Positions 29,238 to 45,534 are shown, counted from the first letter of the stretch. The stretch: DNA of 61,021 nucleotides from a bacterium (GCA_037137535.1 JBAXKC010000015.1:1-61021); one strand, 5' to 3'. The notes: generated by a model from the sequence alone, not told the origin. A program made the numbers and translations.

Positions 29238-29317
29238 AAAATAAAAATTTAGATAAAATAATCCCCCTTTTGGAGAAAAAGGGGGGAATAAATCGAATCT
29301 AAATTGTTAAAGGATTT

Positions 29318-29917
29318 CTAGCCAAAGGTTTTGAATGTCATATCAATGTTTTTATCAATTACTTTTTTAACTGCGTCTATTTCTGTTTGAACTTCGGTGT
29401 GTTGTGTGTCTATGTTCTTAAGATCTAATTCAAGTCTTTTATCTTTTGACTGAAGTTCAGCTGTTAATGCTTCATATTTAGAACTAGCAGCTGCATCATC
29501 TTCTGTTTTTAATCTGTCTTGAATAGCACAATTAGGATCTGTTATCCAATCAACTTTTTTATCTTTATCATTTTCTGTTGGAGGGTTTTTATATTTTAAA
29601 TAAACAGTACTATTTCTAAGACTTGCTTCAAGCTTATCAGATGCAAGAGTCGCCGGAACAGTTGAATCATCTAATGCATAATAAGGAACTAAATTAACTG
29701 TTGCTAAGTTTGCAACTGTTAATGGGATTGAATTACCGTCCATATTTTTTATTTCAAGAATTCTATTATTTAATCCTTCATTGAAGGCTGTTGCTAATGC
29801 TTCCTGTTGATAAGAAAGCATTGTTCTTTCATTATTAACAATTTGCCCTCTATATTCAATATCACTCTTCCGTCCGGTGAGTGTAAGCATTCTGCCTTGA
29901 CTTGCTGCTAAACCCAT
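29318..29917 (-). CDS. 'MGLAASQGR' family coiled-coil orphan protein, paralog 1
   Basis: Conserved N- and C-terminal helices shared with the three copies at 44.9-47.1 kb; AAGGAG RBS. Confidence 0.85.
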   Translation of the reverse strand: MGLAASQGRMLTLTGRKSDIEYRGQIVNNERTMLSYQQEALATAFNEGLNNRILEIKNMDGNSIPLTVANLATVNLVPYYALDDSTVPATLASDKLEASLRNSTVYLKYKNPPTENDKDKKVDWITDPNCAIQDRLKTEDDAAASSKYEALTAELQSKDKRLELDLKNIDTQHTEVQTEIDAVKKVIDKNIDMTFKTFG

Positions 29918-29994
29918 AGCGTGTCTCCTTTGTCCTTATTAGATTCGATTCTTACCTACACCCAAAATTTACATCCATTCGATTTATATTTATG

Positions 29995-30022
29995 TTATCG
30001 ACCGTTTTATGTATTGACTTTA
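29995..30022 (-). promoter_or_regulatory. Sigma28 (FliA/SigD)-type promoter TAAA-N16-GTCGATAA
   Basis: Close to the TAAA-N15/16-GCCGATAA consensus; upstream of paralog 1. Confidence 0.75.
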
Positions 30023-30121
30023 ACTTTTAACCAGCTTTGTCAATTTAAATTTACAAAAATTAACAAATAAAACAAAATTTTTTTATTATGCTATTCACGA
30101 TACACTATAAAGGATTTGTAA

Positions 30122-31015
30122 ATGAATATACCGACAATGATGCCGCTAAAAGCCACACTTAATAAACCAGATTACAAAAAAGCAACACAAAGTTTAAAAG
30201 CAACCGAAGAAAATAAAACTCAAACTTTACCTTATTTCGCTTATAAATCTAATTTTTTATCTTTTAAAGGAAATGATGATAATATTCAATTAAGAAAAGA
30301 AGTTGATCAGCTTAAACAAGAATTAAACTTTTTAAGGTCTGAGTTTAATGAATTTAAAAATAAATTTGAACCGTCAAACAATAATGAAAAAACAGAAACA
30401 CCAAGAAAATCAAAATTTATTAGTACTAATGCTCAAATTGCATACGATGAAATAGTTACACCTATGATTGAAAATTCACTAACAAAGGATGAAGACAGAA
30501 ACACCTTAGAAAAATACAAAGAAAACGAAAAATTTTTAAAAATAGTACAATCGTATCCAAATATTAACAAATTTTTAAAAGAAATAAGAGAAAAAGAAAA
30601 AATGTCCCTTAATTTATTAAAGGCAAACTTAAGTTCCTTTATGATTTGGGAATTTATTCTTGCTAAACCTAGAGTTTTACTTGAATTAAATACAATCGGA
30701 ACTAAATATGAAAATGCCGATATCTATAAAGATATGAAAAAAGAAATGGAAAGAGATTATTATGGCAGATCTTCAAGATTTGGAGATGTTTCACTTTCCG
30801 AAGTATGGCTGAAAAAACTCGGAAACGATCCTTCTAAAATGTCAGACGAAGATAAAATAACACGTCTTATTAATACTTCAGGCGGTGAAAAGAAAATGCT
30901 AAAAGAAGAAACAATAAAAATAGCAAGGGAAACCCCTCTAGCCGTCAAAAAAATGGCTGAACTTATGGATACATGTTTTGATAATTATATAGAGACCTAC
31001 AAAATAAAAGATTAA
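30122..31015 (+). CDS. Orphan protein with an 'LSFKG' leader and a coiled coil
   Basis: 297 aa; disordered leader ending in SNFLSFKG. Confidence 0.75.
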   Translation: MNIPTMMPLKATLNKPDYKKATQSLKATEENKTQTLPYFAYKSNFLSFKGNDDNIQLRKEVDQLKQELNFLRSEFNEFKNKFEPSNNNEKTETPRKSKFISTNAQIAYDEIVTPMIENSLTKDEDRNTLEKYKENEKFLKIVQSYPNINKFLKEIREKEKMSLNLLKANLSSFMIWEFILAKPRVLLELNTIGTKYENADIYKDMKKEMERDYYGRSSRFGDVSLSEVWLKKLGNDPSKMSDEDKITRLINTSGGEKKMLKEETIKIARETPLAVKKMAELMDTCFDNYIETYKIKD

Positions 31016-31776
31016 CTATTTTTCCATTCTGGTTTTCTTTTCTCTATAAAACTACTTATTCCCTCTTTATAATCTTCTAATCCTAGAAGTTCTTCTAAAT
31101 AGGCTTTTTCAGCTTGTATTAATTTCTCTTTAAATTCATTTAAATGAATATTTTTAAAGGTTTTTAAAGTTAAAGAAAGAACACTTCTACTGTTTTTTGT
31201 TATTTTTTCAATAAAAGAATTAACTTCTTCATCAAAAGTATCTTCTTTGAAAATATGATTCACAAGCCCTGCTTCATAGGCCGTTTGTGCATTTATTTTA
31301 TCACCTGTAAATATGTATTCAATTGCTTTTTTATTTGAAGTCAAATAAGGAAGTAAAACCATTGAAACAGGAGGAAAACAACCTAAAGTTATTTCACTGT
31401 GACTAAAACTAGCCTGTTCTGACGCAATTACAAAATCGCTGAATAAAGCCAATTCAGCTCCACCACCGTAACAACCACCTTTTACTACTGATAATAAAGG
31501 TATTTGCAAATCAAGCAAGGTAAAAAACACTTTATGAAAAGCTATTATCATAGGTATTGTATTTTCTAAAGAATGGTCAGTAATACTGACACCTGCCGAA
31601 AAAGCTTTGCCTTCCGCCTTTAGAACCAAAAGTTTTAAATCCTTATCGTTTGATAAATCTTCAAACATTTTATTTAAATAATTCAAATCTTCTATATTTA
31701 AAATATTTAATGGCGGTTTATTTAATACAATAATGGCATAATTATCATTTTTTTTTACTTTTATAAAATTATTCAT
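31012..31776 (-). CDS. Enoyl-CoA hydratase/isomerase (cyclohexadienoyl-CoA hydratase Dch-like)
   Basis: PPLNILNI, FSAGVSI, GGGAEL, EITLGCFPP; ATG at 31776 coupled to the upstream stop. Confidence 0.8.
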   Translation of the reverse strand: MNNFIKVKKNDNYAIIVLNKPPLNILNIEDLNYLNKMFEDLSNDKDLKLLVLKAEGKAFSAGVSITDHSLENTIPMIIAFHKVFFTLLDLQIPLLSVVKGGCYGGGAELALFSDFVIASEQASFSHSEITLGCFPPVSMVLLPYLTSNKKAIEYIFTGDKINAQTAYEAGLVNHIFKEDTFDEEVNSFIEKITKNSRSVLSLTLKTFKNIHLNEFKEKLIQAEKAYLEELLGLEDYKEGISSFIEKRKPEWKNS

Positions 31777-32726
31777 AGTTTTGTTCCACATTTACCGCAA
31801 AATTCAAATTCTTCAGGAAGATATTTTGTCTGACATTCGCTACATTCTTTTAAATTAGCTCCCCATAGAGATTCTGAAGAAAGTCCACTTTTTGCACGTT
31901 CTCTCAATTTAATATAATCAGGTTTTCTTTTTTCAACAAAACCTTGCATTCCTTCATGTGTTTCATAGGAAGAAAAATGCACGCTTAACCAATCCCTTGC
32001 ATGACCTATTGTTTGATTCCATGCAAAATCTTTCCAGAAGTTTAATTGTTGCTTTGTATATCTTGTACATTCAGGAAATTTATTTAAAAGTTTTTCTACA
32101 ACTTCATCAACTTTTTCATCAAGTTCTTCCATAGGTACGACATAATTTATCAAGCCCCATTCTTTTGCCTGTTGAGCTGATATTGGCTCATTAAGCATAA
32201 GAATTTCTCTAGCTCTTCTATCTCCAACCATTAAAGGTAATATTTGAGTAGCTCCACCTGCGGCAACACTTCCTACGCTCGTTCCAACCTGCCTGATAGT
32301 TACATGTTCAGCTGCAATTGCAAAATCACAAGAAAGGTTTATCTCATTACCTCCACCTGTAACCATACCGTTTAATCTTGCAATGGTCGGTTTTCCACTA
32401 TTTCTTAAAAGATCATGAAACTGATTAAAAACACCCATCCACTTCCAGAAATCTCTTGGACGCTTTATAAACTCACCTGCGTATTCTTTTACATCTCCAC
32501 CTGTGCAAAAAGCCTTTTCACCTGCTCCTGTTATTACAATAACAGCTATACCATCATCCCAAACAGCGTCTTGAAGGGCTTTTATCATTTCTTTTAACGT
32601 TATTATGCTGTAAGCATTATAAACTTGAGGTCTATTTATTGTAATAGTAGCCTTCCAGCCTTTTTTATCATAAATTATTTCATTAAATTCAAAGTCTGAT
32701 GCTTTTTTAGCCTTAAAAAAATCCAT
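31773..32726 (-). CDS. Ring-opening crotonase (Oah/BadI/MenB subgroup) with a C-terminal zinc ribbon
   Basis: FCTGGDVKE, GGGNE, QVGTSVGSVAAGGATQ; CSEC ... FCGKCG. Confidence 0.8.
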   Translation of the reverse strand: MDFFKAKKASDFEFNEIIYDKKGWKATITINRPQVYNAYSIITLKEMIKALQDAVWDDGIAVIVITGAGEKAFCTGGDVKEYAGEFIKRPRDFWKWMGVFNQFHDLLRNSGKPTIARLNGMVTGGGNEINLSCDFAIAAEHVTIRQVGTSVGSVAAGGATQILPLMVGDRRAREILMLNEPISAQQAKEWGLINYVVPMEELDEKVDEVVEKLLNKFPECTRYTKQQLNFWKDFAWNQTIGHARDWLSVHFSSYETHEGMQGFVEKRKPDYIKLRERAKSGLSSESLWGANLKECSECQTKYLPEEFEFCGKCGTKL

Positions 32727-32990
32727 AAATTAAACCTCTTTTCGATTTTTCTAATTATACCAATATTAAAACTTATTTGATATTAGTTAATTTGTATCAC
32801 TAAAAACACCGTTATTATTAGCTTTATAACATTGGTTCAACTCAAAAAGGTCTATGGTGTAGACCATTGGATTTATTTTAAGGCTGTAAACCCTATGGTC
32901 GATGATTTAAGTTAGCTATTAATTTAATCTATTTATAGTATTGTGAACGAGTTTCATAATCAAAAATCATTATTTTAAAGGGGTAAGGGG

Positions 32991-34241
32991 ATGAATATTA
33001 ATAGAAGCAAGATACTTTTAGGGGTGGCAGTAGGGTTTATTTTTGGAACTCTTCCTGTGTTTGCTTATGAAGGAGCAATTCTTTCTGAAATAGAAATTAA
33101 TCCTTATAATGAATCAAATTATCAGTTTATTTTAAAAACCGATAAAAAAATACCTATTCAGAAAATTATATCCTCTGATAACAAGGTTATTCTTAAATTA
33201 AAACATACTAGACCTGCTAAATTTGTTAATACTGTCTATAATACTTCTTCTGTTGATAATATTATCATTCAACCTTCCTCAGATGATGAAGTTAAAATCT
33301 ACATTGAAGGAATGAATGCGGCTCAAAGTTATATTTCACTGGAAACAGCTGACAACGGATTAGACTTTATGCCTCCCGTACAGACAGCTGCTACTGATAC
33401 TCAACCCCCAATTGCAAAAGCGTCAGTAGTTAATACAAGCCAAAAGGCCGTTCCGACAAATACAAATATTAAAGCAGCGCCAACTTCAACACCTGTAAAC
33501 GTAGAACCTAAGAATTTAAATGAACAAATACCTGAAAATGTAGTACAAGTGAATAACAAACCTGACTTTAAACCAGCTATAGTCATGCCGGAAGCAACAA
33601 GTGAAGAAAAAAACAACATAAAACAAACAGAAGGCGGTTCTCACTTAGGATTATTAAAGAAAATTTTTGGTTCTTCGTTAATTGATAATATTATAAGAGG
33701 TTTAGCTCTTTTAGTCATTATGTTAGGAGCTTTCAAGTTCTTAAAACCAAGAGAAAAACAAGTTAAAATCAACCTTAACTCAAACCACAACATAAAAGAC
33801 AGAGAAGCTGACTTATTTAAACAACTAAACAACAGCAGAGGTTTAATAGGTTCAAGTTTAAAATCATCCTACGACAAGCAAACACCATTAAAAAGAAACA
33901 CATCTTCGGTTAATTACGGACTAAAAGAATATCAAAACAGTCAAGTTGCACCAAAATCAATGGGATTAAAATCACCTCCAAGATTTTCAGCAGAAGATAT
34001 AGGGTTCAAACCATCACTAAGTCATGACGTTTCTCTAGGATTAAACAGAACTAAAAAAGCCTCAATCAACACTCAAACAAGACAACCAGCCTCAAGAGTT
34101 ACGCAAAATGACATAAACTCGGCAAAAGTAAATATCGACAATGTAAAATTCTTAGAAACAATGGCAGGTATTTATGAAAAAAGTGGAAGAACTGATTTAG
34201 CTTCAGGAATCCAAAGCAGTTTAAGAAAAACAAACAGATAA
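32991..34241 (+). CDS. Envelope protein with an AMIN-like N-terminal domain and one TM helix
   Basis: Signal peptide (VFA-YE), beta-rich N-domain, P/T-rich linker, TM GLALLVIMLGAF. Confidence 0.65.
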   Translation: MNINRSKILLGVAVGFIFGTLPVFAYEGAILSEIEINPYNESNYQFILKTDKKIPIQKIISSDNKVILKLKHTRPAKFVNTVYNTSSVDNIIIQPSSDDEVKIYIEGMNAAQSYISLETADNGLDFMPPVQTAATDTQPPIAKASVVNTSQKAVPTNTNIKAAPTSTPVNVEPKNLNEQIPENVVQVNNKPDFKPAIVMPEATSEEKNNIKQTEGGSHLGLLKKIFGSSLIDNIIRGLALLVIMLGAFKFLKPREKQVKINLNSNHNIKDREADLFKQLNNSRGLIGSSLKSSYDKQTPLKRNTSSVNYGLKEYQNSQVAPKSMGLKSPPRFSAEDIGFKPSLSHDVSLGLNRTKKASINTQTRQPASRVTQNDINSAKVNIDNVKFLETMAGIYEKSGRTDLASGIQSSLRKTNR

Positions 34242-34297
34242 TAGATAACAAAAAAATCTCTCTTTTAAAAAGAGAGATTTTTTATTGTGATTTAATA

Positions 34298-34621
34298 TTA
34301 TTGTTTTTCTTTATGATTAAAGCTATTTTTTATCTTATTAAAAATACTTGGACCATAAGTAACAACTACACCTATTGCTAATCCCGAAGCAACAGAGCTT
34401 ATTATATTTCTTACCATTGAACCTTTTGTTAATTCCTTTAATTGTTCGGGAGTGAAAGAATCTTTCATTTTATTTCTTAAAGAACGTGAATTTAACTCAT
34501 AAGCTACAGCATTTACTTTAGCAGCTGTTAATCCTATAAGAACAGCTTTTTGTGGGGACGGCTTACTTTGAGTTTCAGGCTTTTTTATTAATTGTGTATC
34601 ACTTTTAAAACTTATATTCAT
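34298..34621 (-). CDS. Small orphan membrane protein with an 'MNISFKS' start
   Basis: AAGGAG RBS before ATG 34621 (the longer ORF start overlaps the promoter motif); two hydrophobic segments. Confidence 0.75.
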   Translation of the reverse strand: MNISFKSDTQLIKKPETQSKPSPQKAVLIGLTAAKVNAVAYELNSRSLRNKMKDSFTPEQLKELTKGSMVRNIISSVASGLAIGVVVTYGPSIFNKIKNSFNHKEKQ

Positions 34622-34652
34622 TGATTGGCTCCTTTGTTTTAGACTTTTTTTA

Positions 34653-34681
34653 TATAAAAACAAAAAGTTCTAAATAAATGA
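34653..34681 (-). promoter_or_regulatory. Orphan-gene promoter motif TCATTT-N14-GTTTTTATATA
   Basis: Same spacing as the other sites; weaker upstream box. Confidence 0.55.
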
Positions 34682-34785
34682 CAGTATAGTCTTAGATAAC
34701 CATACTGTCAATTTATATTAATAATAAAAACTAAAGAAGAATATCTGTTAGTTATATAGATTTTTGCCTAATTTAAAAATCTATA

Positions 34786-35415
34786 TTATTCTTTCGTTTC
34801 AAACTTATCTTGTAATTCTTTTCCATATTCAAAATATTTGGTAAAATCACTATTTTTAAAATCATCAAGATTTATTTGTTTACCCTCTTGTTCTTTCATT
34901 TCACAAAAACCTAAAACGGCTAACCCTTTTTTATTAGTAAAGTACATAGATGAATCATCAGTATCATAAGAACTTTTTTCATTTAAAGAATTATCAAATT
35001 TGTCAAAATCCTGAACATTAGTATTATAAATTTTACTTATTGCATAAGAAGTTACGTTACTTATTGCTTTAATACTCGCATTACAATCAGTAAGACATGT
35101 ACAATAAGCCTGTGTCGCCTCCATTGCTTTATTACTGAGTTCTATTGCCTTTAAACTTTCTCTTACTTGTTTTTCACCTTTAAATGATATTTTATTTAGT
35201 TCTATATTATGAATTGTGTTTACATCTTTATTTGATGATTTTAAATTTATATAATTAATTGAGAGGTTTCTTGTGGCTATTGATGTTTTTGAATCAATTA
35301 AACCATTATTACTTAATTGAGCTTTATTTTCAGTTTTATTATTTATTAAAACTTCTTTGCTTTTTACATTTTTTGTTAAAATATTAGTATTTGTATTTCG
35401 ATTAAGAGTTATCAT
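34786..35415 (-). CDS. Orphan leader-bearing protein A (MITLNR ... ISFKG)
   Basis: About 90-aa N-terminus and about 35-aa C-terminus nearly identical to 35469-36074. Confidence 0.8.
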   Translation of the reverse strand: MITLNRNTNTNILTKNVKSKEVLINNKTENKAQLSNNGLIDSKTSIATRNLSINYINLKSSNKDVNTIHNIELNKISFKGEKQVRESLKAIELSNKAMEATQAYCTCLTDCNASIKAISNVTSYAISKIYNTNVQDFDKFDNSLNEKSSYDTDDSSMYFTNKKGLAVLGFCEMKEQEGKQINLDDFKNSDFTKYFEYGKELQDKFETKE

Positions 35416-35468
35416 TTTTTATTCCATTATTCTATATTTACGCTATTTATTAACTTATTTATTTTTAA

Positions 35469-36074
35469 TTATTGTTTATTTTTAAATTTTTCTTTTAATT
35501 CTTTTCCATATTCATGATATTTTGAAAAATCACTATTTTTAAAATCATCCAAATTTATTTTTTTATCATCTTGTTCTTTCATTTCACAAAAACCTAAAAC
35601 AGCTAAAGCAGAAAACTCAACAAAAATTGGATCTAATAATAATAATGAATCTATCAAATTAGAAGAGAAACTACCTTCGGTATTATAAATTTTAGTTATT
35701 TTATTAAACAACTCACTAATTGTTTGATATTTGAGTGCAGGACCTAAACCTGGTGGTATCAAACTACTTTCACTCATTCGTGAATAAATTAAAGCCTTTT
35801 CTATTACCTTCAAACTTTCTCTTACTTGTTTTTCACCTTTAAATGATATTTTATTGGACTCTACATTATGAATTGTGTTTACATCTTTTTTTGACGACTT
35901 TAAATTAATATAATTAATTGAGAGGTTTCTTGCGGCTATTGATGTTTTTGAATCAATTAAACCATTATTACTTAATTGAGCTTTATTTTCAGTTTTATTA
36001 TTTATTAAAACTTCTTTGCTTTTTACGTTTTTTGTTAAAATATTAACATTTGTATTTCTATTAAGAGTAATCAT
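35469..36074 (-). CDS. Orphan leader-bearing protein B (MITLNR ... ISFKG)
   Basis: Tandem paralog of 34786-35415 with a divergent central region. Confidence 0.8.
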   Translation of the reverse strand: MITLNRNTNVNILTKNVKSKEVLINNKTENKAQLSNNGLIDSKTSIAARNLSINYINLKSSKKDVNTIHNVESNKISFKGEKQVRESLKVIEKALIYSRMSESSLIPPGLGPALKYQTISELFNKITKIYNTEGSFSSNLIDSLLLLDPIFVEFSALAVLGFCEMKEQDDKKINLDDFKNSDFSKYHEYGKELKEKFKNKQ

Positions 36075-36164
36075 TATGTTTCCTTTTTACACATATAGAT
36101 TATTTAAAAAGAATACTAGTAGATAAAAGTATAATAATATTCACTAGTAAAGTTTATAAATAAG

Positions 36165-36956
36165 TTATTTAGCGTTTTTTAAATCTTTTGGACCAAAAGA
36201 TTTAGGTAATAGATTTTTTAAGGTTTCAATTTGTAATGGAGTATCTGGAATTACAGTTCCTAAAATAATTTTAGCATTTTCTTCATTATTAAATTCTTCA
36301 ATAACTTGTCGACAAGCTCCACAAGGAGAAGCAGGTTCAGGTGCTTCTTTTACCACAATAGCTAAACCTGCTATTTGTACTGCACTACCATCTTTATTAT
36401 GCCCCTCATTTGCTACCATGTTAAATAAAGCCACTCTTTCAGCACAAACAGTAAGACCATAACTAGAATTTTCTACATTACAACCTTTGTAAATTTTTCC
36501 GTTCTCGCTTATTACAGCTGCACCAACATGATAATTAGAATAAGGCGCATAAGATTTATCAGTTTGTTTTATGGAAATATCAAATAGTAATCTAGCTACT
36601 TTATCATCTATCATATCAGGTGTTATTTTGCCTACTGTTTTTATTTTTTTATCAAGTATAGCTTGCAATTCTTTTTCAGGATTATAATTAACTTCAGGTT
36701 TTATAGCAGAATCAATTGTTGAAGAAACAGCAATTCCCTCTACAGCAGCAAGAAACTCTCTTCTTGTCATATTTTCGCCTGTAAATTTAACATTTGTTGA
36801 ATAGTAAGCTTGTAAATTAGGTAAATTAAATTTAGATAGATTATGTTTATCTATACTTTTTTTTATAATTAACGGACTTAATTCTTTTTTTTTAATATTT
36901 TCTAATAATTTTGTCTTATTATTTATCATGGAATTTCGCTCATTAATATTTATCAT
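36165..36956 (-). CDS. cdd: Cytidine deaminase with an N-terminal extension of about 120 aa
   Basis: SYAPYSNYHVGAA, GCNVEN, CAE and PCGACRQ (Cys-type CDA); leader contains NLQAYY..NVKFTG. Confidence 0.88.
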   Translation of the reverse strand: MININERNSMINNKTKLLENIKKKELSPLIIKKSIDKHNLSKFNLPNLQAYYSTNVKFTGENMTRREFLAAVEGIAVSSTIDSAIKPEVNYNPEKELQAILDKKIKTVGKITPDMIDDKVARLLFDISIKQTDKSYAPYSNYHVGAAVISENGKIYKGCNVENSSYGLTVCAERVALFNMVANEGHNKDGSAVQIAGLAIVVKEAPEPASPCGACRQVIEEFNNEENAKIILGTVIPDTPLQIETLKNLLPKSFGPKDLKNAK

Positions 36957-37050
36957 AAATCCTCTTTTTTAAATCATATTAACTTACTTAAATTAAAAGA
37001 CCCTAATTTAGAGCCTTTTAATGTTTATTAAAATATAAAATTAATATTTT

Positions 37051-37473
37051 TTATTTTACATCATCATTCTTTTTTTCTAATTGCTTTACTTTTTCTCTTA
37101 AACACATACCATCTAAAATAAAATAACCCATTATGGCTTTACAAACATTACCAATGGTCTCTTTTAAAAGCTTTTTGTTTTTTTCAATGTTTTCACTTAA
37201 TACTTCTGGTGTTTTTTCAACAATTTTAGCAAACGATTTATTTAAATTCTGTTTATTTCTAATAGCTTCTTCTGCAACTAAACCTAGAAAAAGTAAAGTA
37301 CCTCCATTTCTCACATATTCAAAATTTCTAAGATTAATATCATTAAGTTGTTTTTTATCTTGTATTTGTCTATTAGGTTGAGTTGATAATACATCCTTAT
37401 TTGATTTAGTAATATCATTCTGAATAGTAGATTTAAAAGTTGGAGTATTAGTCTTAAAGGTTGAAATGTTCAT
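37051..37473 (-). CDS. Small orphan membrane-hairpin protein with a 'PTFKS' leader
   Basis: 140 aa; AGGAG RBS; two hydrophobic segments. Confidence 0.7.
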   Translation of the reverse strand: MNISTFKTNTPTFKSTIQNDITKSNKDVLSTQPNRQIQDKKQLNDINLRNFEYVRNGGTLLFLGLVAEEAIRNKQNLNKSFAKIVEKTPEVLSENIEKNKKLLKETIGNVCKAIMGYFILDGMCLREKVKQLEKKNDDVK

Positions 37474-37482
37474 TTTTTCTCC

Positions 37483-38398: not shown

Positions 38399-38420
38399 TT
38401 CTTTGCTCCTAATTACTTAA

Positions 38421-38452
38421 TATATATAAAACCAAAAGTTTCAAACAATTGA
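38421..38452 (-). promoter_or_regulatory. Orphan-gene promoter motif TCAATT-N13-GGTTTTATATATA
   Basis: Heads the 38398-34786 orphan array. Confidence 0.65.
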
Positions 38453-38523
38453 TAGTATAATCGGCTAATATTTTAGAGTCAAATAAAACATATTATTATA
38501 TTAAGTTTAATTTATATTATTAA

Positions 38524-39819
38524 TTAAAACGAAAGAAGAATACCTGCTATAGTAGCAGAGAGATAAGAAGCCATTGTTCCGCAAACTAGAGCTTTTAATC
38601 CTATCTTAGCAAGGTCTTTTGCTCTTGTAGGAGCTAGTTGACCAATACCGCCAATCTGTATTGCAACAGAACTAAGGTTTGCAAATCCGCAAAGAGCAAA
38701 AGTAGCAATTGCTATTGATTTAGGTGAAAGAGTAGCGGCTGCCGTTCCTTTTATTGCAGGTAACAAATCAAGATAAGCTACAAATTCATTTAATACAAGT
38801 TTTGTTCCCATAAGTTGTCCGACAAAACCCGCATCTTTCCACGGAACACCCATAAGCCAAGCAAATATAGAGAATACACTTCCAATAATGCCCTTTAAGC
38901 TTATATGAGTAACATCAACACCAATAAAACCAAGATTTACACCCATATGTCCCATTACAAGACCAAGTTTAGCAACGCTTGCATCGAACATATTTATTAC
39001 GGCAACAAAACCTATAAGCATAGCTATTACGTTAATTGATATTTTCATACCGTCACTTGCCCCATGAGCAAGAGCATCAATAACGTTAATGGAATTATTT
39101 TCCACATGCAGTTTAATCTCACCCTTTGTTTCAGATTTTTCTGTTTCGGGATAAACCATCTTTGCTATAACAAGAGCACCAGGAGCTGCCATAATGCTTG
39201 CGGTTAAAAGATATTGAGCAGGAATACCCATACTTATGTAAACAGCCATAACTCCGCCTGAAATACAAGCAAAACTCCCTGCCATGGATGCCATAAGTTC
39301 TGACATTGTCATACCTGGAACATAAGGTTTTATAAGAATTTGAGCTTCAACTTGTCCGACAAAAACACTTCCTGCATTAGAAAGAGCTTCACTTCCACTA
39401 ACACCCATAAGTTTTAAAACAACCTTAGCTATTATTGATATAAAAAATTGCATTATTCCTAAGTGATAAGCAAGACTGACAAGAGCTGAAACAAAAATAA
39501 TTGTAGGAGCTACTTTAAATACAAAGATAAAATCATTACCCGCTCCAAAAGCATGTGTAAGCAAATGATTATTCATAAGAGGCCCAAATACAAATTCTCC
39601 GCCCTTATCTGAAAATTTCAAAAGAGTTGTTATAAGTGCGCCTGCTTTTGAAAAAATAGTTGAACCTATTTGAGTTTTTAAAACAAAAAGTGCTAAAAGT
39701 AATTGTATTAATAAACCTGATCCTATAATTCTCCAATTAATAGCTTTTCTGTTGTTAGATAACAAATAAGCAATACCAAGTATTGCAATAACTCCAAAAA
39801 TTCCGGAAAATTTATCCAC
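38524..39819 (-). CDS. nupC: NupC/CNT family nucleoside transporter
   Basis: LSNNRKAINWR, FVGQVEA, KLVLNEFVAY, FALCGFANLSS. Confidence 0.94.
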   Translation of the reverse strand: MDKFSGIFGVIAILGIAYLLSNNRKAINWRIIGSGLLIQLLLALFVLKTQIGSTIFSKAGALITTLLKFSDKGGEFVFGPLMNNHLLTHAFGAGNDFIFVFKVAPTIIFVSALVSLAYHLGIMQFFISIIAKVVLKLMGVSGSEALSNAGSVFVGQVEAQILIKPYVPGMTMSELMASMAGSFACISGGVMAVYISMGIPAQYLLTASIMAAPGALVIAKMVYPETEKSETKGEIKLHVENNSINVIDALAHGASDGMKISINVIAMLIGFVAVINMFDASVAKLGLVMGHMGVNLGFIGVDVTHISLKGIIGSVFSIFAWLMGVPWKDAGFVGQLMGTKLVLNEFVAYLDLLPAIKGTAAATLSPKSIAIATFALCGFANLSSVAIQIGGIGQLAPTRAKDLAKIGLKALVCGTMASYLSATIAGILLSF

Positions 39820-39985
39820 AAATAACCCCCTTAAACTCTCATTGCTATATTTTGATTTTACAGGAAATTTTTATTTTTATAAACAAAAATAAATCACTTA
39901 TGCATAAAGTTTAAAAAGTAAATTAATGAATAGAAAAAATAAAAAAATCTGATAAATTTATCAGATTTTTTATAAATTTTAATTT

Positions 39986-40090
39986 TTAATAATTATCTTT
40001 TCGTATCGGTATAGGTTGTAAAAGATTTTGCCTGCCAGAATAACATCCTAATAAAAGAGTAGCCGTCGTTATAATTAAAACTGTTAGCAT
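39986..40090 (-). CDS. Small hydrophobic protein or lipopeptide MLTVLIITTATLLLGCYSGRQNLLQPIPIRKDNY (34 aa; not in the ORF track)
   Basis: TAATG coupling to the upstream gene, AAGGAG RBS, LLG-C lipobox-like motif, followed by a hairpin at 39941-39970. Confidence 0.55.
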   Translation of the reverse strand: MLTVLIITTATLLLGCYSGRQNLLQPIPIRKDNY

Positions 40091-40827
40091 TAAGTCTCTC
40101 CTTGTAAGTCGTTCATTGTTAAAATATTTTTCACATAAAAAACGTTGTCTTTTCTTATGACGTCTATTAACCTGTTTAGTTCATTTTTAACTTCGGTTGT
40201 CTTGTATTTTATAGTTAAAACACTAACTATTTCGGCAACTTTTTCCCTTATTTGATACTCCTTATTATTTATAAAAACATCACTTATGTTTATTAACTGT
40301 TTTAATGTTTCTTCAGTTAAAGTCAAATCCTCTCGCTTTATTATTTCTCTTATAGCTGATAAAGACCAGTATAGTTGAGTCATTGTTAAATCATTTAACT
40401 TACCGAACAATTCGTCTAATACAAATAGAGGATTATCAATATATTTTAATATATTAATCGTATTTCTGCAAACATTGGGAGTTGTGCCATTCAAGGTATC
40501 TATAAAAGCATTTAAGCTGTAAGTATCACTGAATAAATCAATAAACAAGGACTTTTTCAACAACTCACCAAGCAAATATGTTGATATATCTAAAACTCTA
40601 TTTCTTTTATAGGATATACATTTTTTTAAAAATAATAAATCTTCTTCTGTTTTTAATTCTTCTATTTTTAATAATTTAATTAATAATTCTTCTTCTGAGG
40701 GATTTTCTTTTAATTCAAAATAAATGCTATTATTTAGTAACAGGACAGAAGCATTAACCTTAACATCAATATCTTCTGATGCTAAATCATTTAGAATTAA
40801 ATCTGTTTTATTATCTAAATTATTCAT
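40090..40827 (-). CDS. HEAT/ARM-like helical repeat protein
   Basis: Leu-rich amphipathic repeats (EDIDVKVNAS, EYQIREKVAE, DNVFYVK). Confidence 0.65.
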   Translation of the reverse strand: MNNLDNKTDLILNDLASEDIDVKVNASVLLLNNSIYFELKENPSEEELLIKLLKIEELKTEEDLLFLKKCISYKRNRVLDISTYLLGELLKKSLFIDLFSDTYSLNAFIDTLNGTTPNVCRNTINILKYIDNPLFVLDELFGKLNDLTMTQLYWSLSAIREIIKREDLTLTEETLKQLINISDVFINNKEYQIREKVAEIVSVLTIKYKTTEVKNELNRLIDVIRKDNVFYVKNILTMNDLQGET

Positions 40828-40931
40828 TTTCTAATACTTTTGGGGGTATAATCACAACCAAAAAATCTCTAAAATTATATTACATTTATAATAATTATAT
40901 TATACAAACAAAATTATGAGGAGAATAAAAT

Positions 40932-41117
40932 ATGAAATCATGGGGTGTAGTGGATTTTTTCAAAGATCTGGTATTCCAACAAAATAGCGATTATGTGGGT
41001 CTTAGCCGATTAAAAAACACAGAAGAAAATACTCCCAAAATGCCATCAATACCAAAAAAGGCAAGAAAAGACGTAAAAATATCCGACCTTATGAAAGGCA
41101 ATATCTCTGATTATTAA
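40932..41117 (+). CDS. Small hypothetical protein (61 aa)
   Basis: GAGGAG RBS; followed by a bidirectional hairpin. Confidence 0.7.
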   Translation: MKSWGVVDFFKDLVFQQNSDYVGLSRLKNTEENTPKMPSIPKKARKDVKISDLMKGNISDY

Positions 41118-41154
41118 CAAAAATAAAGGAGTCAATTAAGACTCCTTTATTTTT

Positions 41155-42186
41155 TTATTGGTACATTTTCATTATAGTTTTAACATTTTTAAGCGTTTCA
41201 CTTGCTTTAAATCTGGCTTTCTCGCTGCCTTCTATAAGTAATTTATTTATATAATCAGGATTTTGTTCTAATTCCGCTCTTTTTTCTCTTACAGATCTAA
41301 ATTTATTATTAATAATAGTGGCTATTTCTCTTTTGCAATCAGCGCAACCTCTAATAGCATTTACACATTCATTCTTCATTCTTTCTTGAGTTTCTTTATC
41401 TGCGAAAATAGAATAATAAGGACAGATTACTTCACAGTCTTCAGGATGTCCTGGATCTGTTTTTCTAAGCCTTGATCTATCTGTAACAGCACTCATTATT
41501 TTTTTAGTTGTTACTTCTTCCGAATCAGCAATCTTTATATCGTTATTAAAAGATTTACCCATTTTTTGACCATCAACACCTTTAATAAGAGGTGTTTCAG
41601 TTAATCGTGGATGTGGCTCGTTAAAATAATCTGTTTTATAAAGATAATTAAATCTTCTTGTTATATCCCTTGTTAATTCAAGGTGAGCAATCTGATCATG
41701 CCCAACAGGAACCAGCGAAGCATTAAAAGTAATTATATCAGCTGTCATTAAAACAGGGTAACCTAATAATCCATAATTAAGTAAACCTGATATATTTTGT
41801 TGTCCTTCATTATCTTCATGATCTTTTCTTAAGATTTTAACCATGTCTTTTAAAGTAGGATCTCTTTCTACCCAATTTTGAGGGGTTATCATACTTAAGT
41901 AAAGATGAATTTCAGCTGTTTCAGGTACTAAAGACTGTATATAAACAGTTGATTGCTCTGGATTTATCCCGCTTGCAATCCAATCGAGAGCTACATTAAC
42001 TATATTTTCTTTTAAATCTTCTGTTTTGTCATATTTAGTTGTTAAAGCATGCCAGTCTGCAATTGAGAAGAAACATTCATATTCATTTTGAAAATCTATC
42101 CAGTTTCTAAGTACTCCCATATAATGTCCTAAATGAAGTTTTCCTGTAGGACGCATTCCCGACATTATACGTTTTTTATCGCTCAT
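41155..42186 (-). CDS. trpS: Tryptophan--tRNA ligase
   Basis: SGMRPTGKLHLGH, YPVLMTADI, VPVGHDQ, KMGKS. Confidence 0.96.
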   Translation of the reverse strand: MSDKKRIMSGMRPTGKLHLGHYMGVLRNWIDFQNEYECFFSIADWHALTTKYDKTEDLKENIVNVALDWIASGINPEQSTVYIQSLVPETAEIHLYLSMITPQNWVERDPTLKDMVKILRKDHEDNEGQQNISGLLNYGLLGYPVLMTADIITFNASLVPVGHDQIAHLELTRDITRRFNYLYKTDYFNEPHPRLTETPLIKGVDGQKMGKSFNNDIKIADSEEVTTKKIMSAVTDRSRLRKTDPGHPEDCEVICPYYSIFADKETQERMKNECVNAIRGCADCKREIATIINNKFRSVREKRAELEQNPDYINKLLIEGSEKARFKASETLKNVKTIMKMYQ

Positions 42187-42397
42187 TACAAAAGCTCCTT
42201 TAACTAAATTTTATTCTATATAAAATCTATTCTAATTAAAAAATAAAACATAATCTTCTATTGATGATTTTTAATATTAACTTTAATTAAGTATTTTAGT
42301 TCATATTTTAATTATTATTAAAAAACTTAACAATTAAAATTCAGCTAAAATAGACGTGTTTTGTAGAGATTAGATAAATACAGCAAGAAATTGTTTA

Positions 42398-42427
42398 GCA
42401 ATTTTTATTATAATTTTGTTTTTTATA
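42398..42427 (+). promoter_or_regulatory. Orphan-gene promoter motif GCAATT-N14-GTTTTTTATA
   Basis: About 155 nt upstream of ORF 42584; one extra T. Confidence 0.5.
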
Positions 42428-42583
42428 AGTAAGTAGATAAAATTAATAATAGGGGTTTTTATTTACTGTTTTTAAAGAGGTTATGTTTAATTACAACCGT
42501 TTTAATTTAATAAATCGGCCGGCTTATTGAAATAAAATTGTTAGGTTGTAAAATGGGAAGATTATTATAGGATATGGGTGTAA

Positions 42584-42949
42584 ATGAATAGCTTTAATTT
42601 TAATACTAATTTCAAAGCCTATAAAAGTTGTGAGAGTTCTTTAGATTACGCTTTAGATGTTTTCTGTACTTCAAAAACAGGAAGTGTATTTGATTGCGTG
42701 GCTCCATTAAAACATTCAACAGCAAACTCTGCAACTTCAAGAAAACTTAAAAACATGTTTCGAGCTATAGATCAAAAAATAACTTTATTTGACGTAGCAA
42801 CAAGTCAAAATAGTTGTTCTTCTGATGTTACAAATAAGGCAACAGACCTTTTAATGGAACTTAGAGAAACTAATGATCCATATAGAAAACAAGAAGTTAT
42901 GGATAAAGTTGACAACTTTTTTGAAAATGTAAAAAAAGGTAATCTTTAA
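42584..42949 (+). CDS. Orphan protein with a 'TNFKA' leader
   Basis: 121 aa; begins MNSFNFNTNFKA. Confidence 0.7.
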   Translation: MNSFNFNTNFKAYKSCESSLDYALDVFCTSKTGSVFDCVAPLKHSTANSATSRKLKNMFRAIDQKITLFDVATSQNSCSSDVTNKATDLLMELRETNDPYRKQEVMDKVDNFFENVKKGNL

Positions 42950-42987
42950 ACAATAAAAAACTGCTTAAACAAATAAGCAGTTTTTTA

Positions 42988-43311
42988 TTACTTTATTTTC
43001 TTTATCGAAGAATAACTTGAATGTATTTTACTAAGAAGTAATGTTTTAGAAGCATCTACTGTAAAAACACCACAAATTATTATAAGAGCTGTTATTATCC
43101 AACTTAATAACAAACTCGTCCAAAAATTATCCTTTTTTTTAAAAGAATATCCACATTTACAACTATCATTTGAAGTTAAATTCTTTCTATTGCAATTAGG
43201 ACATTTAAAATCAAGAATAATCCCATTTTGCTCAAAATAATAACCATCCATAAAAGATTTAACATATATAACATTTTCACAAGAATAATAATTCTTATTA
43301 TTTTTTATCAT
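42988..43311 (-). CDS. Zinc-ribbon membrane protein
   Basis: CPNC ... CKCG followed by one TM helix; start uncertain. Confidence 0.6.
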   Translation of the reverse strand: MIKNNKNYYSCENVIYVKSFMDGYYFEQNGIILDFKCPNCNRKNLTSNDSCKCGYSFKKKDNFWTSLLLSWIITALIIICGVFTVDASKTLLLSKIHSSYSSIKKIK

Positions 43312-43547
43312 TTTAATGCCTAAAAATTCCCCAACTGCTAGAAATATAAAACACTATATTGTGTTCTATATCATCCATACGTTTAATAAAAAAATTCCTA
43401 TTGGGCTAAATTGTAGCTATTTAATTTCAAATACGCTTTTTTATAAATTAAAGATAAATATTATAACAGTAGACTTTTTTGCAATGAAAAAACATATTTT
43501 AAAATCTATATTATTAATAATGAGAGCTATTTTATGAGGTATGAATA

Positions 43548-43763
43548 ATGTTTAATGATTATTCTGCAATAGAAAAAAATATTGATAATATTGATAAAAA
43601 AACAAAAAAAAGAAATGAAGCAGGAAGGTCATTAAACAGATATATTGATCAGCTTAAATTTCATTTTGAATTAACCGATAACGATGTATTAAGTGTTTTA
43701 AATTTAATAATAAAAAACAGAAAAGAAAACTCCAGTAAAAAATGGTGGCAGTTATGGAAATAA
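43548..43763 (+). CDS. Small hypothetical protein
   Basis: GAGGT RBS; ends in KKWWQLWK. Confidence 0.6.
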   Translation: MFNDYSAIEKNIDNIDKKTKKRNEAGRSLNRYIDQLKFHFELTDNDVLSVLNLIIKNRKENSSKKWWQLWK

Positions 43764-43819
43764 AAAGGTAATATAATAAAAGAATTACTGTTTTTATATT
43801 CTATTAAATAGGGGAAAAA

Positions 43820-44422
43820 ATGGCAGAAAAAATTAATGTAGAACTTGATCAAAAATTCATTCAAAATTTATTTGGATTAGCTGACCTTAATCCTCCTTCA
43901 GAAATAAATAGCGATAATTTAAATAATGCAATAAGTATTATAAAAACAAAATTCAATAACTTAGCTCTTTCTTCAGGAGGAATGGGTGGAGTAAAAACCC
44001 CTAGTACGGAAACAGTCAAAAATGCATATATGGCTAATGAACCCTCTAATGTTGTCAGACCTAAGTCTATTCTTATTGTCGATGATCTTGGAATTATAAC
44101 TTATCAACTTGAAGTTATGTTTAAAAAACTGGGATTTGATGTTTGTATCTCTCAAGAAATTTATGATGCAATAGATAAATTCAAAAAACAGGATTTTGGT
44201 TATGCAATCATAGATTTGTTTATACCTACAGAACGTGAAGGCTTTATATTACTGGATGAACTAAAAAAATTAACTTTATTATGCAAGTTAAACACCAAAA
44301 TAATAGTAATGACTGCCTCCTCCAAATCAGAATATCAAACAAAATGCACAAACAGAGGAGCGGATGTTTACGTTGAAAAAGCTCCGGGATGGCAGAAAAA
44401 ACTTGTGGAAGTATGTCAATAA
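43820..44422 (+). CDS. Response regulator (C-terminal receiver domain with an N-terminal extension)
   Basis: ILIVDD, IIDLFIP, IIVMTA, GADVYVEK. Confidence 0.85.
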   Translation: MAEKINVELDQKFIQNLFGLADLNPPSEINSDNLNNAISIIKTKFNNLALSSGGMGGVKTPSTETVKNAYMANEPSNVVRPKSILIVDDLGIITYQLEVMFKKLGFDVCISQEIYDAIDKFKKQDFGYAIIDLFIPTEREGFILLDELKKLTLLCKLNTKIIVMTASSKSEYQTKCTNRGADVYVEKAPGWQKKLVEVCQ

Positions 44423-44434
44423 AAAGGTTTTAAG

Positions 44435-44653
44435 ATGCAATTAAATAATAAAAAATGTCCCTTTAAATTAGAAAAATGTTCCAACGAATGTTCGTTATAC
44501 ATAGATCCTGAAGAACTAAATGAAACTGTAAAAAACAAACTGGCAAGTTTAGGTGTAATAGACAGGAAATCAGGTATTTGTTCATTTAAAAATATGGCTC
44601 TTGCTATGAGTCGAACTATATTTGAAAACAATCATAACTCTTCTTGCCGCTAA
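44435..44653 (+). CDS. Small Cys-rich (putative Zn-binding) protein
   Basis: CPF...C..ECSLY ... CSF. Confidence 0.7.
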   Translation: MQLNNKKCPFKLEKCSNECSLYIDPEELNETVKNKLASLGVIDRKSGICSFKNMALAMSRTIFENNHNSSCR

Positions 44654-44787
44654 AAATATATACAATTAATCTTTAAAAAACCGATAAGTATATACTATTA
44701 AAGTATTATATTATCGGTTTTTTTTGCTATTTAAACATAAAAACCTTAAATCAACTAACTATAAGGACTTTGTAAAGCTTTGTTACG

Positions 44788-44832
44788 AATATATACTAAT
44801 TACGCAATTAGTATATATTGAATGTTTTTATA
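44788..44832 (+). promoter_or_regulatory. Orphan-gene promoter motif GCAATT-N14-GTTTTTATA overlapped by a perfect 14-bp inverted repeat
   Basis: AATATATACTAATT-acgc-AATTAGTATATATT (44788-44819); motif at 44804-44832; duplicated at 46418-46462. Confidence 0.75.
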
Positions 44833-44881
44833 TATATGTAAGGTAAATGTGAATTTAATAAAAAGCATAAGGAGATATATT

Positions 44882-45466
44882 ATGGGTTTAGCTGCTAGTC
44901 AAGGTAGAATGCTTACTCTTACTTCAAGAAAAAGTGACCTAGAATACAGAGCTCAAATTATCAGTAACAGAAGAATTATGCTTTCTATGCAAACCAGTGA
45001 ATTATCAAGACAATACTCAGAAGCTTTAAATAACAGAATTATGAAAGTTAAAACTGATGGACAAGAATTACCTCTTTCTGTTGCTAACTTAACTTTAGTT
45101 AATATGAAAGCTGTTTACGCTGATGGTTCTGCTGTTCCCGATAAAACAGCTTCTAATGTTCTTGAAGAAGGTTTAAGAAATGGCGTCATATCTATGCAAT
45201 ACATTAACAAACCTGCTGATGCTGAAACAAATAATGTTGACTGGAAAACTTCTACTCTTATTAACGATAATCTAAACACAGCTGATGATGCGGCTGCTAA
45301 CGGTAAATATGAATACCTTAGCGCTCAACTTCAAGCTCAAGACAAACAAATGGAACTTGAATTGAAAAACGTTGAAACTATGCACAAAGCTGTTGAAACT
45401 GAAACTGAATCTGTTAAAAAGGTTGTTGATAAAAACATCGAAATGACATTCAAAGCTTTCTCTTAA
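44882..45466 (+). CDS. 'MGLAASQGR' family protein, paralog 2a
   Basis: AAGGAG RBS before ATG 44882; 194 aa. Confidence 0.88.
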   Translation: MGLAASQGRMLTLTSRKSDLEYRAQIISNRRIMLSMQTSELSRQYSEALNNRIMKVKTDGQELPLSVANLTLVNMKAVYADGSAVPDKTASNVLEEGLRNGVISMQYINKPADAETNNVDWKTSTLINDNLNTADDAAANGKYEYLSAQLQAQDKQMELELKNVETMHKAVETETESVKKVVDKNIEMTFKAFS

Positions 45467-45502
45467 TTTATTAATTTTTCACATTTTCTTACTTTTTATT
45501 TT

Positions 45503-45534
45503 AAGACTCTTCTTTTGAAGAGTCTTTTTTTTTT
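45503..45534 (+). terminator. Rho-independent terminator
   Basis: AAGACTCTTC-tttt-GAAGAGTCTT followed by a T-tract; duplicated at 47133-47162. Confidence 0.85.

Follow-up and report, generated by a model that had tools for sequence, protein, structure and literature searches.

Complementary 5' and 3' untranslated regions in two MGLAASQGR-family genes of an uncultured Melainabacteria-like bacterium: a possible lineage-specific mRNA fold-back

The stretch of DNA analysed here, hereafter the window, is a 61 kb segment (GCA_037137535.1 JBAXKC010000015.1:1-61021) from an uncultured Melainabacteria-like bacterium whose genome has a GC content of 31%. The lineage is a freshwater one, made up of uncultured, non-photosynthetic relatives of the cyanobacteria. 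Four paralogs of the MGLAASQGR protein family lie within the window: P1 on the minus strand (29318..29917, 199 amino acids), and P2 (44882..45466, 194 amino acids), P3 (45683..46267) and P4 (46512..47096) on the plus strand. P1 and P2 were identified from the ORF list and by tblastn, and P2 is also covered by RNA-library contigs. P3 is 86% identical to P2 at the nucleotide level in the coding sequence only, with unrelated untranslated regions (UTRs). The P4 locus, coding sequence included, is a 100% identical copy of the P2 locus over 901 nt (44632-45532 = 46262-47162), and P4 is not independent of P2 because it sits in this exact 901-bp duplicate. Thus, where the original prediction spoke of two paralogs, the two named are real but the window holds four, one of them an exact copy.

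The family is multi-copy and variable, abundant, and uncharacterised. Of 41 related genomes searched, 40 have it, at up to 57 matches each, and the genus and family of the window's bacterium have no other representative among the 41. No Pfam or NCBIfam model matched the proteins, their Atlas neighbours are hypothetical Melainabacteria proteins, and a PDB fold search gave no match (best E 0.08, to generic coiled-coil hairpins). In the predicted structure of the 194-199 amino acid ORFs, the N- and C-terminal parts form a long helical hairpin and the middle is beta-rich. We rejected the possibility that the family is flagellin itself, as the genome has seven Flagellin_N matches of its own. Proteins P0003-P0005 are 72-76% identical. 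A metagenome scan with P2 returned four loci only, each distant in whole-protein match.

At P1, a perfect inverted repeat of 12 nt (29291-29302/29939-29950, 100% complementary) places a 5' UTR arm, GAAUCGAAUCUAA (29939..29951, positions -34 to -22 from the AUG, minus strand; pairing probability about 0.9 in the fold), opposite a 3' UTR arm, UUAGAUUCGAUUU (29290..29302, minus strand), that lies between the stop codon and the terminator. The arm duplex has a predicted energy of -14.2 kcal/mol. The Shine-Dalgarno (SD) sequence AAAGGA (29926..29931) is predicted to pair with an anti-SD-like UCCUUU (29309..29314) at +4 to +9 after the stop codon, in a 6-bp helix of -6.1 kcal/mol. Together with the adjoining 13-bp helix, this 3' UTR pairing is predicted to cover the P1 SD with a probability of about 0.9. 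A second perfect repeat (29288-29298/29977-29987, 11 nt, 100% complementary) provides an alternative 5' partner, AUAAAUCGAAU (29977..29987, minus strand), whose helix of -9.9 kcal/mol competes for 29288-29298. Its probable position at the 5' end of the P1 mRNA follows from the placement of a putative upstream promoter motif, TAAAGT-N-GTCGATAA (29995..30022, minus strand), found by pattern scan and similar to the sigma-28 consensus. An intrinsic terminator stem is predicted at 29263..29285 on the minus strand, directly 3' of the 3' arm.

At P2, the 5' UTR arm (44838..44862, plus strand; probability about 0.9) faces a 3' UTR arm that begins directly after the stop codon (45467..45492) and is followed directly by a predicted intrinsic terminator (45503..45526). 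The arm duplex is predicted at -17.2 kcal/mol and consists of three helices separated by small internal loops: 6 bp (44838-44843 with 45487-45492), 9 bp (44845-44853 with 45478-45486) and 8 bp (44855-44862 with 45467-45474), with asymmetric bulges and one G-U pair. A conserved upstream element (TTGTTAC..ATATATAC..TGTTTTTATATA..GTAAG; 44781..44842, plus strand), recovered by nhmmer (E 6.6e-11) and aligned with six homologous loci, is probably the P2 promoter. The P4 arms (46468-46492 and 47097-47122, plus strand) are those of the copied P2 locus. All of the sequences, coordinates and complementarities quoted in the original prediction for P1 and P2 were verified, among them the 12-bp inverted repeat, the UCCUUU-AAAGGA pairing and the alternative partner in P1.

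When the full-length transcripts were folded, the minimum free energy structures contained 34 pairs between 5' and 3' UTR in P1 and 23 in P2, each with probabilities of about 0.8-0.9, and the UTR-UTR duplexes had energies of -21.4 and -19.1 kcal/mol, respectively. Pairing of the P2 SD with the 3' UTR had probability 0 in the full-length fold. The closed-loop mRNA proposed earlier is thus predicted thermodynamically for full-length P1 and P2, but it is absent from P3 and from most homologues.

P3 lacks comparable 5'-3' pairing. Its co-fold gain (ddG, defined below) is -8.5, a value reached by 138 of 812 genes, and 29/150 and 86/150 dinucleotide shuffles reach its score. The gene does have a 7-bp SD helix with its 3' UTR (probability about 0.7), a local 5' UTR hairpin with 18-nt arms that are 94% complementary (45624..45668, plus strand; inverted-repeat search), and a putative upstream sigma-28-like promoter motif (45578..45605, plus strand), again by pattern scan. 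Such a motif precedes three of the seven family genes of this genome in the pattern scan. Pairing is absent too from the family genes on contigs C8 and C9; for a further family gene, on contig C62, shuffles reach the ddG in 1/150 and 5/150 cases. The arms of P1 and P2 had been described as unrelated. They do differ between the two genes, but their 5' UTRs can be aligned starting at about -31, sharing GAAT(C/T)TAATAA, and a GAAT(Y)TAA core is present in both; the C/T difference in the aligned 5' arms (GAAT[C/T]TAA) has a compensatory G/A counterpart in the 3' arms.

For comparison across the genome we used the co-fold gain, ddG, between the region from -70 to +15 and that from 15 nt before the stop codon to +70, with local hairpins allowed to compete. 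This measure replaced plain RNAduplex energies because GC-rich terminator arms confound the latter. P1 scored -24.9 and P2 -17.8, against a mean of -5.7 (sd 3.4) for 817 genes of the genome, ranking 2nd and 6th/7th; among 812 non-family genes, one scored as low as P1 and four as low as P2. The fold-versus-shuffle check proposed originally gave a clear result, in that dinucleotide shuffles of the 3' or 5' flank reached the P1 value in 0/150 and 0/150 cases and the P2 value in 1/150 and 1/150, and the genome controls were also beaten. The tail of the distribution is only modestly heavier than that of outer flanks at ddG <= -15 (14/817 genes versus 10/785), and at <= -17.8 the counts are 7/817 and 2/785, with an outer-flank minimum of -26.0. 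Strand asymmetry was absent: of 18 genes with a minimum of sense and antisense <= -15, nine were stronger in sense and nine in antisense, therefore nothing marks the repeat as an RNA-level rather than a DNA-level feature.

The lowest ddG values in the genome belong to a flagellin gene on contig C11 (-26.4), to P1, and then to genes behind the TGTTTTTATATA element that also precedes P2. Four of these extreme genes are unrelated to the family and encode low-complexity proteins. Among non-family genes, ddG <= -15 was found for 4/15 with the strict TGTTTTTATATA motif versus 7/797 without it (p = 2.3e-5), the motif class having been defined only after its appearance among the top genes. Within the TGTTTTTATATA class, cognate pairs averaged -10.7 and non-cognate pairs -7.3 (permutation p = 1e-4, with P2 and P4 both counted), and values <= -15 occurred in 0/32 outer, untranscribed flanks versus 6/34 inner flanks of the motif genes. 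The association was not replicated in seven other genomes (G002, G003, G006, G008, G016, G020 and G039; 50 usable genes from about 115 loci), where ddG <= -15 was reached by 1/48 non-family TGTTTTTATATA genes versus 28/1000, and the mean for those 48 genes was -6.66 versus -6.76.

To see how far the pairing extends beyond this genome, we compared 75 homologues. The bulk of the distribution was unshifted, with cognate UTR pairs at -6.99 and non-cognate pairs at -6.15 (Mann-Whitney p = 0.22, mean rank 0.48); for the first 25 homologues the values were -5.71 and -6.06. The tail was heavier, with ddG <= -15 in 5/75 versus 43/2400 (p = 0.015), and one homologue reached -33.2 with 37 predicted pairs; non-cognate family pairs go as low as -28.9. 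No pairing was seen in the closest homologues retrieved (L002, L003, L005, L006 and L042, at about 44-52% amino acid identity). With an nhmmer profile built on the upstream element, 13 of the 75 were classed as carriers, at -7.9 versus -6.8 for the others (p = 0.31), and family 3' UTRs showed no enrichment in anti-SD-like words (20/81 versus 162/812, p = 0.19), the word in the P1 3' UTR notwithstanding. The 5'-3' pairing is a lineage- or gene-specific trait that is not conserved across the protein family. The original argument, that pairing is retained while the sequence differs, applies to two independent genes only and fails in P3 and in the bulk of the homologues. A lack of UTR complementarity in homologues had been named in advance as evidence against the idea, and such a lack is largely what the 75 homologues display.

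RNA-library contigs cover the P1 5' arm (29450-29973) and the P2 coding sequence with part of both arms (44848-45485); stretches of the window without RNA contigs carry no information. With ends at 44848 and 45485, the predicted P2 duplex would carry a 3' overhang of 2 nt, although contig ends are unreliable: the 44848 end bears an adapter-like loose end, and the contig from the other RNA run (44910-45392) does not reproduce either end. Were the 5' end at 44848, as the one contig suggests, the P2 arm duplex would weaken to -8.9 kcal/mol. Strain variation in the sequencing runs gave no UTR differences; the differences seen were confined to the coding sequence and came from contigs resembling P3. 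Genes for RNase III, at 92731-93372 of contig C2, and for RNase Y are present in the genome, and a search with TIGR00649 found no match for RNase J.

Chance complementarity is a serious rival explanation, if on balance the less likely one: the UTRs are short and AT-rich, in a 31% GC genome, and the best repeats were picked from 61 kb. These same stretches contain many perfect inverted repeats of 9-10 nt, a pair of paralogs with partly homologous leaders does not amount to two independent draws, and both the outer flanks and the non-cognate family pairs come close to the genomic tail or reach extreme values. P3 and the genes on C8 and C9 do not pair, nor do 70 of the 75 homologues at <= -15, and the motif genes of other genomes gave no replication. 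What chance accounts for poorly is the position of P1 and P2 among the 817 genes together with shuffles that reach them 0-1 times in 150, and a non-random set of extreme genes that combines two paralogs with four more behind one promoter element. The within-class permutation also points away from chance, as does the layout of the arms, which take up almost all of the 3' UTR and run antiparallel to, and in register with, the leader.

The same complementarity would serve equally well if a stable fragment of 3' UTR plus terminator acted in trans on its own or paralogous leaders. The 3' arms lie directly before strong terminators, the usual anatomy of 3'-UTR-derived small RNAs, and the GAAT(Y)TAA core is common to P1 and P2; but the best complementarity is cognate and not between paralogs, and no separate 3' fragment is seen among the RNA contigs, the single contig extending into the P2 3' arm being continuous with the coding sequence. 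We consider this improbable. A DNA-level feature, either recombination sites of an invertible, phase-variable cassette or paired protein-binding sites, would suit repeats that flank the ribosome binding site (RBS) and coding sequence with promoter and terminator outside, that are mostly Watson-Crick without overall strand bias (P2 antisense -17.9, sense -17.8), and that belong to a multi-copy, variable family, as phase-variable surface proteins often do. The asymmetric bulges and G-U pair of the P2 arms fit such sites badly, and since each locus has arms of its own sequence, a common recombinase or regulator site is disfavored. Recombinase families found no match among 15 neighbouring ORFs, and contigs from two DNA runs contain no strand-changing joint at either locus, with 44621-45532 spanned collinearly, a weak check since contigs drop rare variants. 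This reading is accordingly given very little weight. Finally, full-length hok mRNA folds back with its two ends paired, and a type I toxin mRNA of this kind, folded back and inert until 3' processing, had been offered as an analogy. The likeness is formal and confined to the 5'-3' pairing. The size and nature of the ORFs effectively rule this reading out: at 194-199 amino acids, with a helical hairpin and beta-rich middle predicted, they show no toxin features and belong to a family found in 40/41 genomes; ORF and promoter scans revealed no small hydrophobic ORF or antisense gene.

Our preferred reading, to which we assign a probability of roughly 45%, is a fold-back between 5' and 3' UTR that is specific to this lineage and akin to those of icaR and hbs. 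The analysis establishes the complementarity, its statistical excess within the genome and the predicted folds; that the duplex forms in vivo, and what it would do there, is inferred. In P1 and in P2/P4 nearly the whole short 3' UTR, from stop codon to terminator, is complementary to the 5' UTR, therefore the transcript could close as a panhandle, looping out the coding region. The P1 duplex would span the SD, and a mutually exclusive helix could instead join that 3' segment to the very start of the mRNA; the P2 duplex would span the leader's first 25 nt and leave the SD free, so that one mechanism may not fit both genes. The most likely role would be cis control of mRNA fate, either by keeping RNases off the 5' end and leader, as in Bacillus subtilis hbs, or by masking the RBS and presenting RNase III with a double-stranded target, as in Staphylococcus aureus icaR. 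A regulatory role is no more than plausible because the sister copy and most relatives lack the pairing.

In icaR, according to PMC3868564, a UCCCCUG motif, single in a long 3' UTR (over 100 nt), pairs with the SD region of the same mRNA, blocking initiation and creating an RNase III substrate. The P1 UCCUUU-AAAGGA helix with its adjoining 13-bp helix, in a genome that has RNase III, resembles that arrangement. By contrast, the 3' UTRs here are about 30-35 nt and almost entirely paired, the P2 duplex leaves the SD untouched, and there is no conservation of the trait among homologues; a conserved 3' UTR motif of the icaR type was found neither through pairing in the 75 homologues (p = 0.22) nor through anti-SD-like words (20/81 versus 162/812). 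For the B. subtilis hbs mRNA, PMC5737220 describes a 5'/3'-UTR interaction with helices of matching size (12-15 bp). Helices of this type are predicted in the full-length folds of P1 (13 bp) and P2 (6+9+8 bp), and RNase Y is present here, but RNase J, which completes the hbs pathway in that account, was not found with TIGR00649. A 2025 preprint by Gill et al. (PMC12697547) on long-range anti-SD folding in bacterial mRNAs reports that the RBS can be paired, effectively in vivo, by pyrimidine-rich sequences located hundreds of nucleotides further 3', with reduced translation and increased decay; such words are depleted from genes in that work, whereas P1 carries one in its 3' UTR.

A wider set of panhandle mRNAs, comprising two MGLAASQ-family genes, four TGTTTTTATATA-promoter genes for low-complexity proteins and one flagellin gene, is a doubtful extension that we think unlikely to hold. 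Each short 3' UTR would essentially be the reverse complement of its leader, and RNase III trimming might leave paired, protected ends, or the message might stay silent until opened. Any argument from conservation between paralogs weakens given the exact duplicate, the partly homologous leaders and the real homologues. Very few bacterial 5'-3' UTR interactions are documented (for example icaR, PMC3868564, and hbs, PMC5737220), and none is known to us outside Firmicutes. If the fold-back works, it would add a further case, in an uncultured non-photosynthetic relative of the cyanobacteria, and the pairing would touch flagellin as well as an abundant uncharacterised protein family. Pairing of mRNA ends might then prove a more general and fast-evolving means of tuning stability or translation.

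The contig belongs to a genome of 2.95 Mb with 31% GC, and the ORF list gives four gene copies starting MGLAASQGR within the window: P1 (29318-29917, minus strand), and P2 (44882-45466), P3 (45683-46267) and P4 (46512-47096), all three on the plus strand. Three shorter family members of 95-119 aa, here called C9, C62 and C8, lie on the contigs of those names. Because 44632-45532 and 46262-47162 are 100% identical over 901 nt, P4 is not independent of P2; the exact 901-bp duplication comprises a P3-type 3' UTR and terminator plus the entire P2 locus. P2 and P3 share 86% nucleotide identity, confined to the stretch from one base 5' of the ATG through the stop codon, and their UTRs are unrelated; the homology thus ends exactly at the borders of the coding sequence, which looks as though the UTR sets had recombined separately from the coding sequences. 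Elsewhere in the window, two tandem paralogs (MITLNRNTN...) occupy 34786-36074, where, in a contig from one DNA run, 34885 is followed by 35569 with 683 nt skipped; in this variant the two copies are fused or one is deleted. Homologues of the window's proteins carry the source labels Candidatus Gastranaerophilales or Melainabacteria, and the sequencing runs containing this DNA are freshwater metagenomes.

Every sequence quoted in the original prediction, which proposed that the ends of these mRNAs are complementary, was found in its place. For P1, a repeat search returned inverted repeats of 12 nt (29291-29302/29939-29950) and 11 nt (29288-29298/29977-29987), both 100% complementary. The minimum-energy structure of the full-length P1 transcript contains 34 pairs linking the 5' UTR with the 3' UTR, with probabilities of about 0.8-0.9, including a 13-bp helix and pairing of the Shine-Dalgarno (SD) sequence AAAGGA with UCCUUU. 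The P2 fold has 23 UTR-UTR pairs, joining 44838-44862 to 45467-45492 with a probability of about 0.9, and its SD is unpaired; the P3 fold has only seven, between the SD and UCUUCUU directly after the stop codon. The UTR-UTR duplex energies are -21.4, -19.1 and -10.3 kcal/mol for P1, P2 and P3, respectively, and the 3' arms are followed by intrinsic terminators. Just 5' of the SD, the P3 leader has a local hairpin at 45624-45668 (18-nt arms, 94% complementary), so that P3 may rely on a local fold to shield its 5' region, a task for which P1 and P2 would employ the 3' UTR.

In two independent genes, P1 and P2, the complementarity is genuine and stands out statistically. We scored it as ddG, the gain in folding energy from letting the 5' end (-70 to +15) and the 3' end (-15 to +70 relative to the stop) pair, relative to each folded alone; since joint and separate folds are compared, terminators and leader hairpins can compete. 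The genome background, from 817 genes with intergenic flanks, has a mean of -5.7 and a standard deviation of 3.4. Only 1 of 812 non-family genes has a ddG as low as that of P1 (-24.9), and 4 are as low as P2 and P4 (-17.8); the corresponding counts are 30 for C62 (-12.2), 138 for P3 (-8.5), 167 for C8 (-7.9) and 340 for C9 (-6.0). Among 150 dinucleotide shuffles each of the 3' and the 5' flank, none matched P1, one and one matched P2, and one and five matched C62; P3, C9 and C8 were often equalled. From these ranks and shuffle counts, the pairing of P1 and P2 is better than that of shuffled UTRs. Caution is needed, as these AT-rich stretches often contain perfect inverted repeats of 9-10 nt and the tail at or below -15 is not much lighter in outer untranscribed flanks (10/785) than in genes (14/817); at or below -17.8, the genome-wide counts are 2/785 and 7/817.

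The suggestion that an unrelated sequence performs the same pairing in P1 and P2 survives in part. Upstream of a common core the arms differ on both sides, but the leaders align from about -31 and have GAAT(C/T)TAATAA in common, the helices occupy the same place in the leader, and within this core the C/T difference has its counterpart in G/A in the 3' arms. Judged from this alignment, the two helices are not fully independent; a single old helix that evolved by compensatory changes would leave such a pattern, seen here in one comparison of two paralogs.

No Pfam or NCBIfam model covers the uncharacterised MGLAASQ family; 40 of 41 related genomes contain it, a single genome having up to 57 matches. 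Its members have conserved N-terminal (~55 aa) and C-terminal (~75 aa) helices around a middle of 0 to ~600 aa; in an AlphaFold model (pLDDT 80.6) a beta-rich insert separates long helices at the two termini, giving a predicted helical hairpin that carries a tip domain, and a PDB fold search with this structure gave nothing significant (best E 0.08). In related genomes, the gene after the short members (~100-135 aa) is a conserved one starting MSYKNDHLL. The pairing is no conserved trait of the family. Among 75 complete homologues with flanks from other genomes, the mean ddG was -6.99 for ends from the same gene (cognate) and -6.15 for 2400 non-cognate combinations (Mann-Whitney p = 0.22, mean rank 0.48), and the nearest homologues obtainable (~44-52% identity) gave no pairing signal. 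Only the tail is heavier, with 5/75 homologues at or below -15 versus 43/2400 non-cognate pairs (p = 0.015); one metagenomic homologue, for which 37 pairs are predicted, is as low as -33.2, and in a few others the leader, including the SD, is predicted to pair with the 3' UTR. The 3' UTRs of the family show no enrichment of anti-SD-like words (20/81 versus 162/812). By this comparison, the expectation that homologues would keep the pairing largely fails.

Two kinds of upstream element precede family genes. The first, TAAA-N15/16-G(C/T)CGATA(A/T), a sigma-28-like motif, lies 5' of P1, P3, C9 and about 30 of the 75 homologues; as TAAA-N15/16-GCCGATAA it occurs at 29995-30022 (P1, minus strand), 45578-45605 (P3, plus strand) and 24103-24129 of contig C9. 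FliA and CsrA genes and seven Flagellin_N matches occur in the genome, and the family may be part of the late flagellar regulon. The second element, conserved over ~60 nt and ending TGTTTTTATATA..GTAAG, lies 5' of P2/P4, C62 and several homologues; its form TTGTAAC..ATATATACTTTTTATG..TGTTTTTATATA..GTAAG lies at 44781-44842 and 46411-46472 and on contigs C8, C12, C20 and others. Many of the genes that follow it encode low-complexity, N/Q-rich proteins without known family, and it probably serves an unknown regulon as promoter. Inside the P2 copy, a 13-bp perfect palindrome, ATATATACTAATT / AATTAGTATATAT (44788-44819), looks like an operator.

The strongest complementarity in the genome belongs to a flagellin gene (contig C11, 19609-20460; ddG -26.4), in which UCCCUGU and CUUCUUACU of the 3' UTR pair with the SD-proximal leader. 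P1 is next, followed by three genes whose low-complexity products match no Pfam family, with P2/P4 in between; the second element is present at several of these lowest-ddG genes. Other flagellin leaders have GGA-loop hairpins, of a kind that binds CsrA. Outside the family, 4/15 genes that have the strict motif of the second element are at or below -15 versus 7/797 without it (p = 2.3e-5), the class having been picked after it was noticed among the lowest-ddG genes. Within the class, cognate ends average -10.7 and non-cognate ends -7.3 (permutation p = 1e-4, P2 and P4 both counted), and 0/32 outer flanks are at or below -15. Replication in seven other genomes failed, with 1/48 non-family genes carrying the 12-mer at or below -15 versus 28/1000 non-cognate pairs, and equal means. 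The 12-mer itself is several-fold enriched over a reversed control in six of these seven (for example, 67 versus 20 and 33 versus 4 in G003 and G016) and is not enriched in G002. Part of the evidence for a wider phenomenon comes from this genome only, and conservation gives no support.

The reading we favour, at a probability of roughly 0.45, is a fold-back in cis of the 5' UTR onto the 3' UTR, of the kind outlined for the icaR mRNA of S. aureus and the hbs mRNA of B. subtilis. In P1 it would mask the SD, and the same 3' segment can instead pair with the inferred 5' end in an 11-bp helix (-9.9 versus -14.2 kcal/mol for the main helix), an alternative that could act as a switch. In P2 the helix would hide the 5' end and leave the SD free; were 44848 the true 5' end, its energy would drop to -8.9 kcal/mol. 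Genes for RNase III and RNase Y are present, and a TIGR00649 search found no RNase J. Chance complementarity, with the untranscribed flanks and the bulk of the homologues on its side and the ranks and shuffles of P1 and P2 against it, is less likely but a serious rival; a trans-acting 3' UTR fragment is improbable, and a hok-like system scarcely credible.

It is improbable that the repeats act at the DNA level, for example as an invertible switch, instead of as RNA helices: the arms differ between loci, those of P2 have asymmetric bulges, 0/15 neighbouring ORFs match a recombinase family and, a weak point, the DNA contigs contain no inversion joint. Between the two levels as such, nothing decides. 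The lower of the sense and antisense ddG is at or below -15 in 18 genes, and since the sense strand is stronger in only 9 of them, G-U pairs give no strand signal. RNA-library contigs span 44848-45485 (P2) and 29450-29973 (P1), so parts of the arms are present in RNA. One such contig (depth 45) runs from an adapter-like loose end at 44848 to 45485, positions that would leave a 2-nt 3' overhang on the predicted P2 duplex, the geometry of RNase III products. As contig ends are not RNA ends, this is a lead at most, and the P2 contig of a second RNA run (44910-45392) did not reproduce them. Should the cis fold-back hold, these genes would add to a known kind of regulation.
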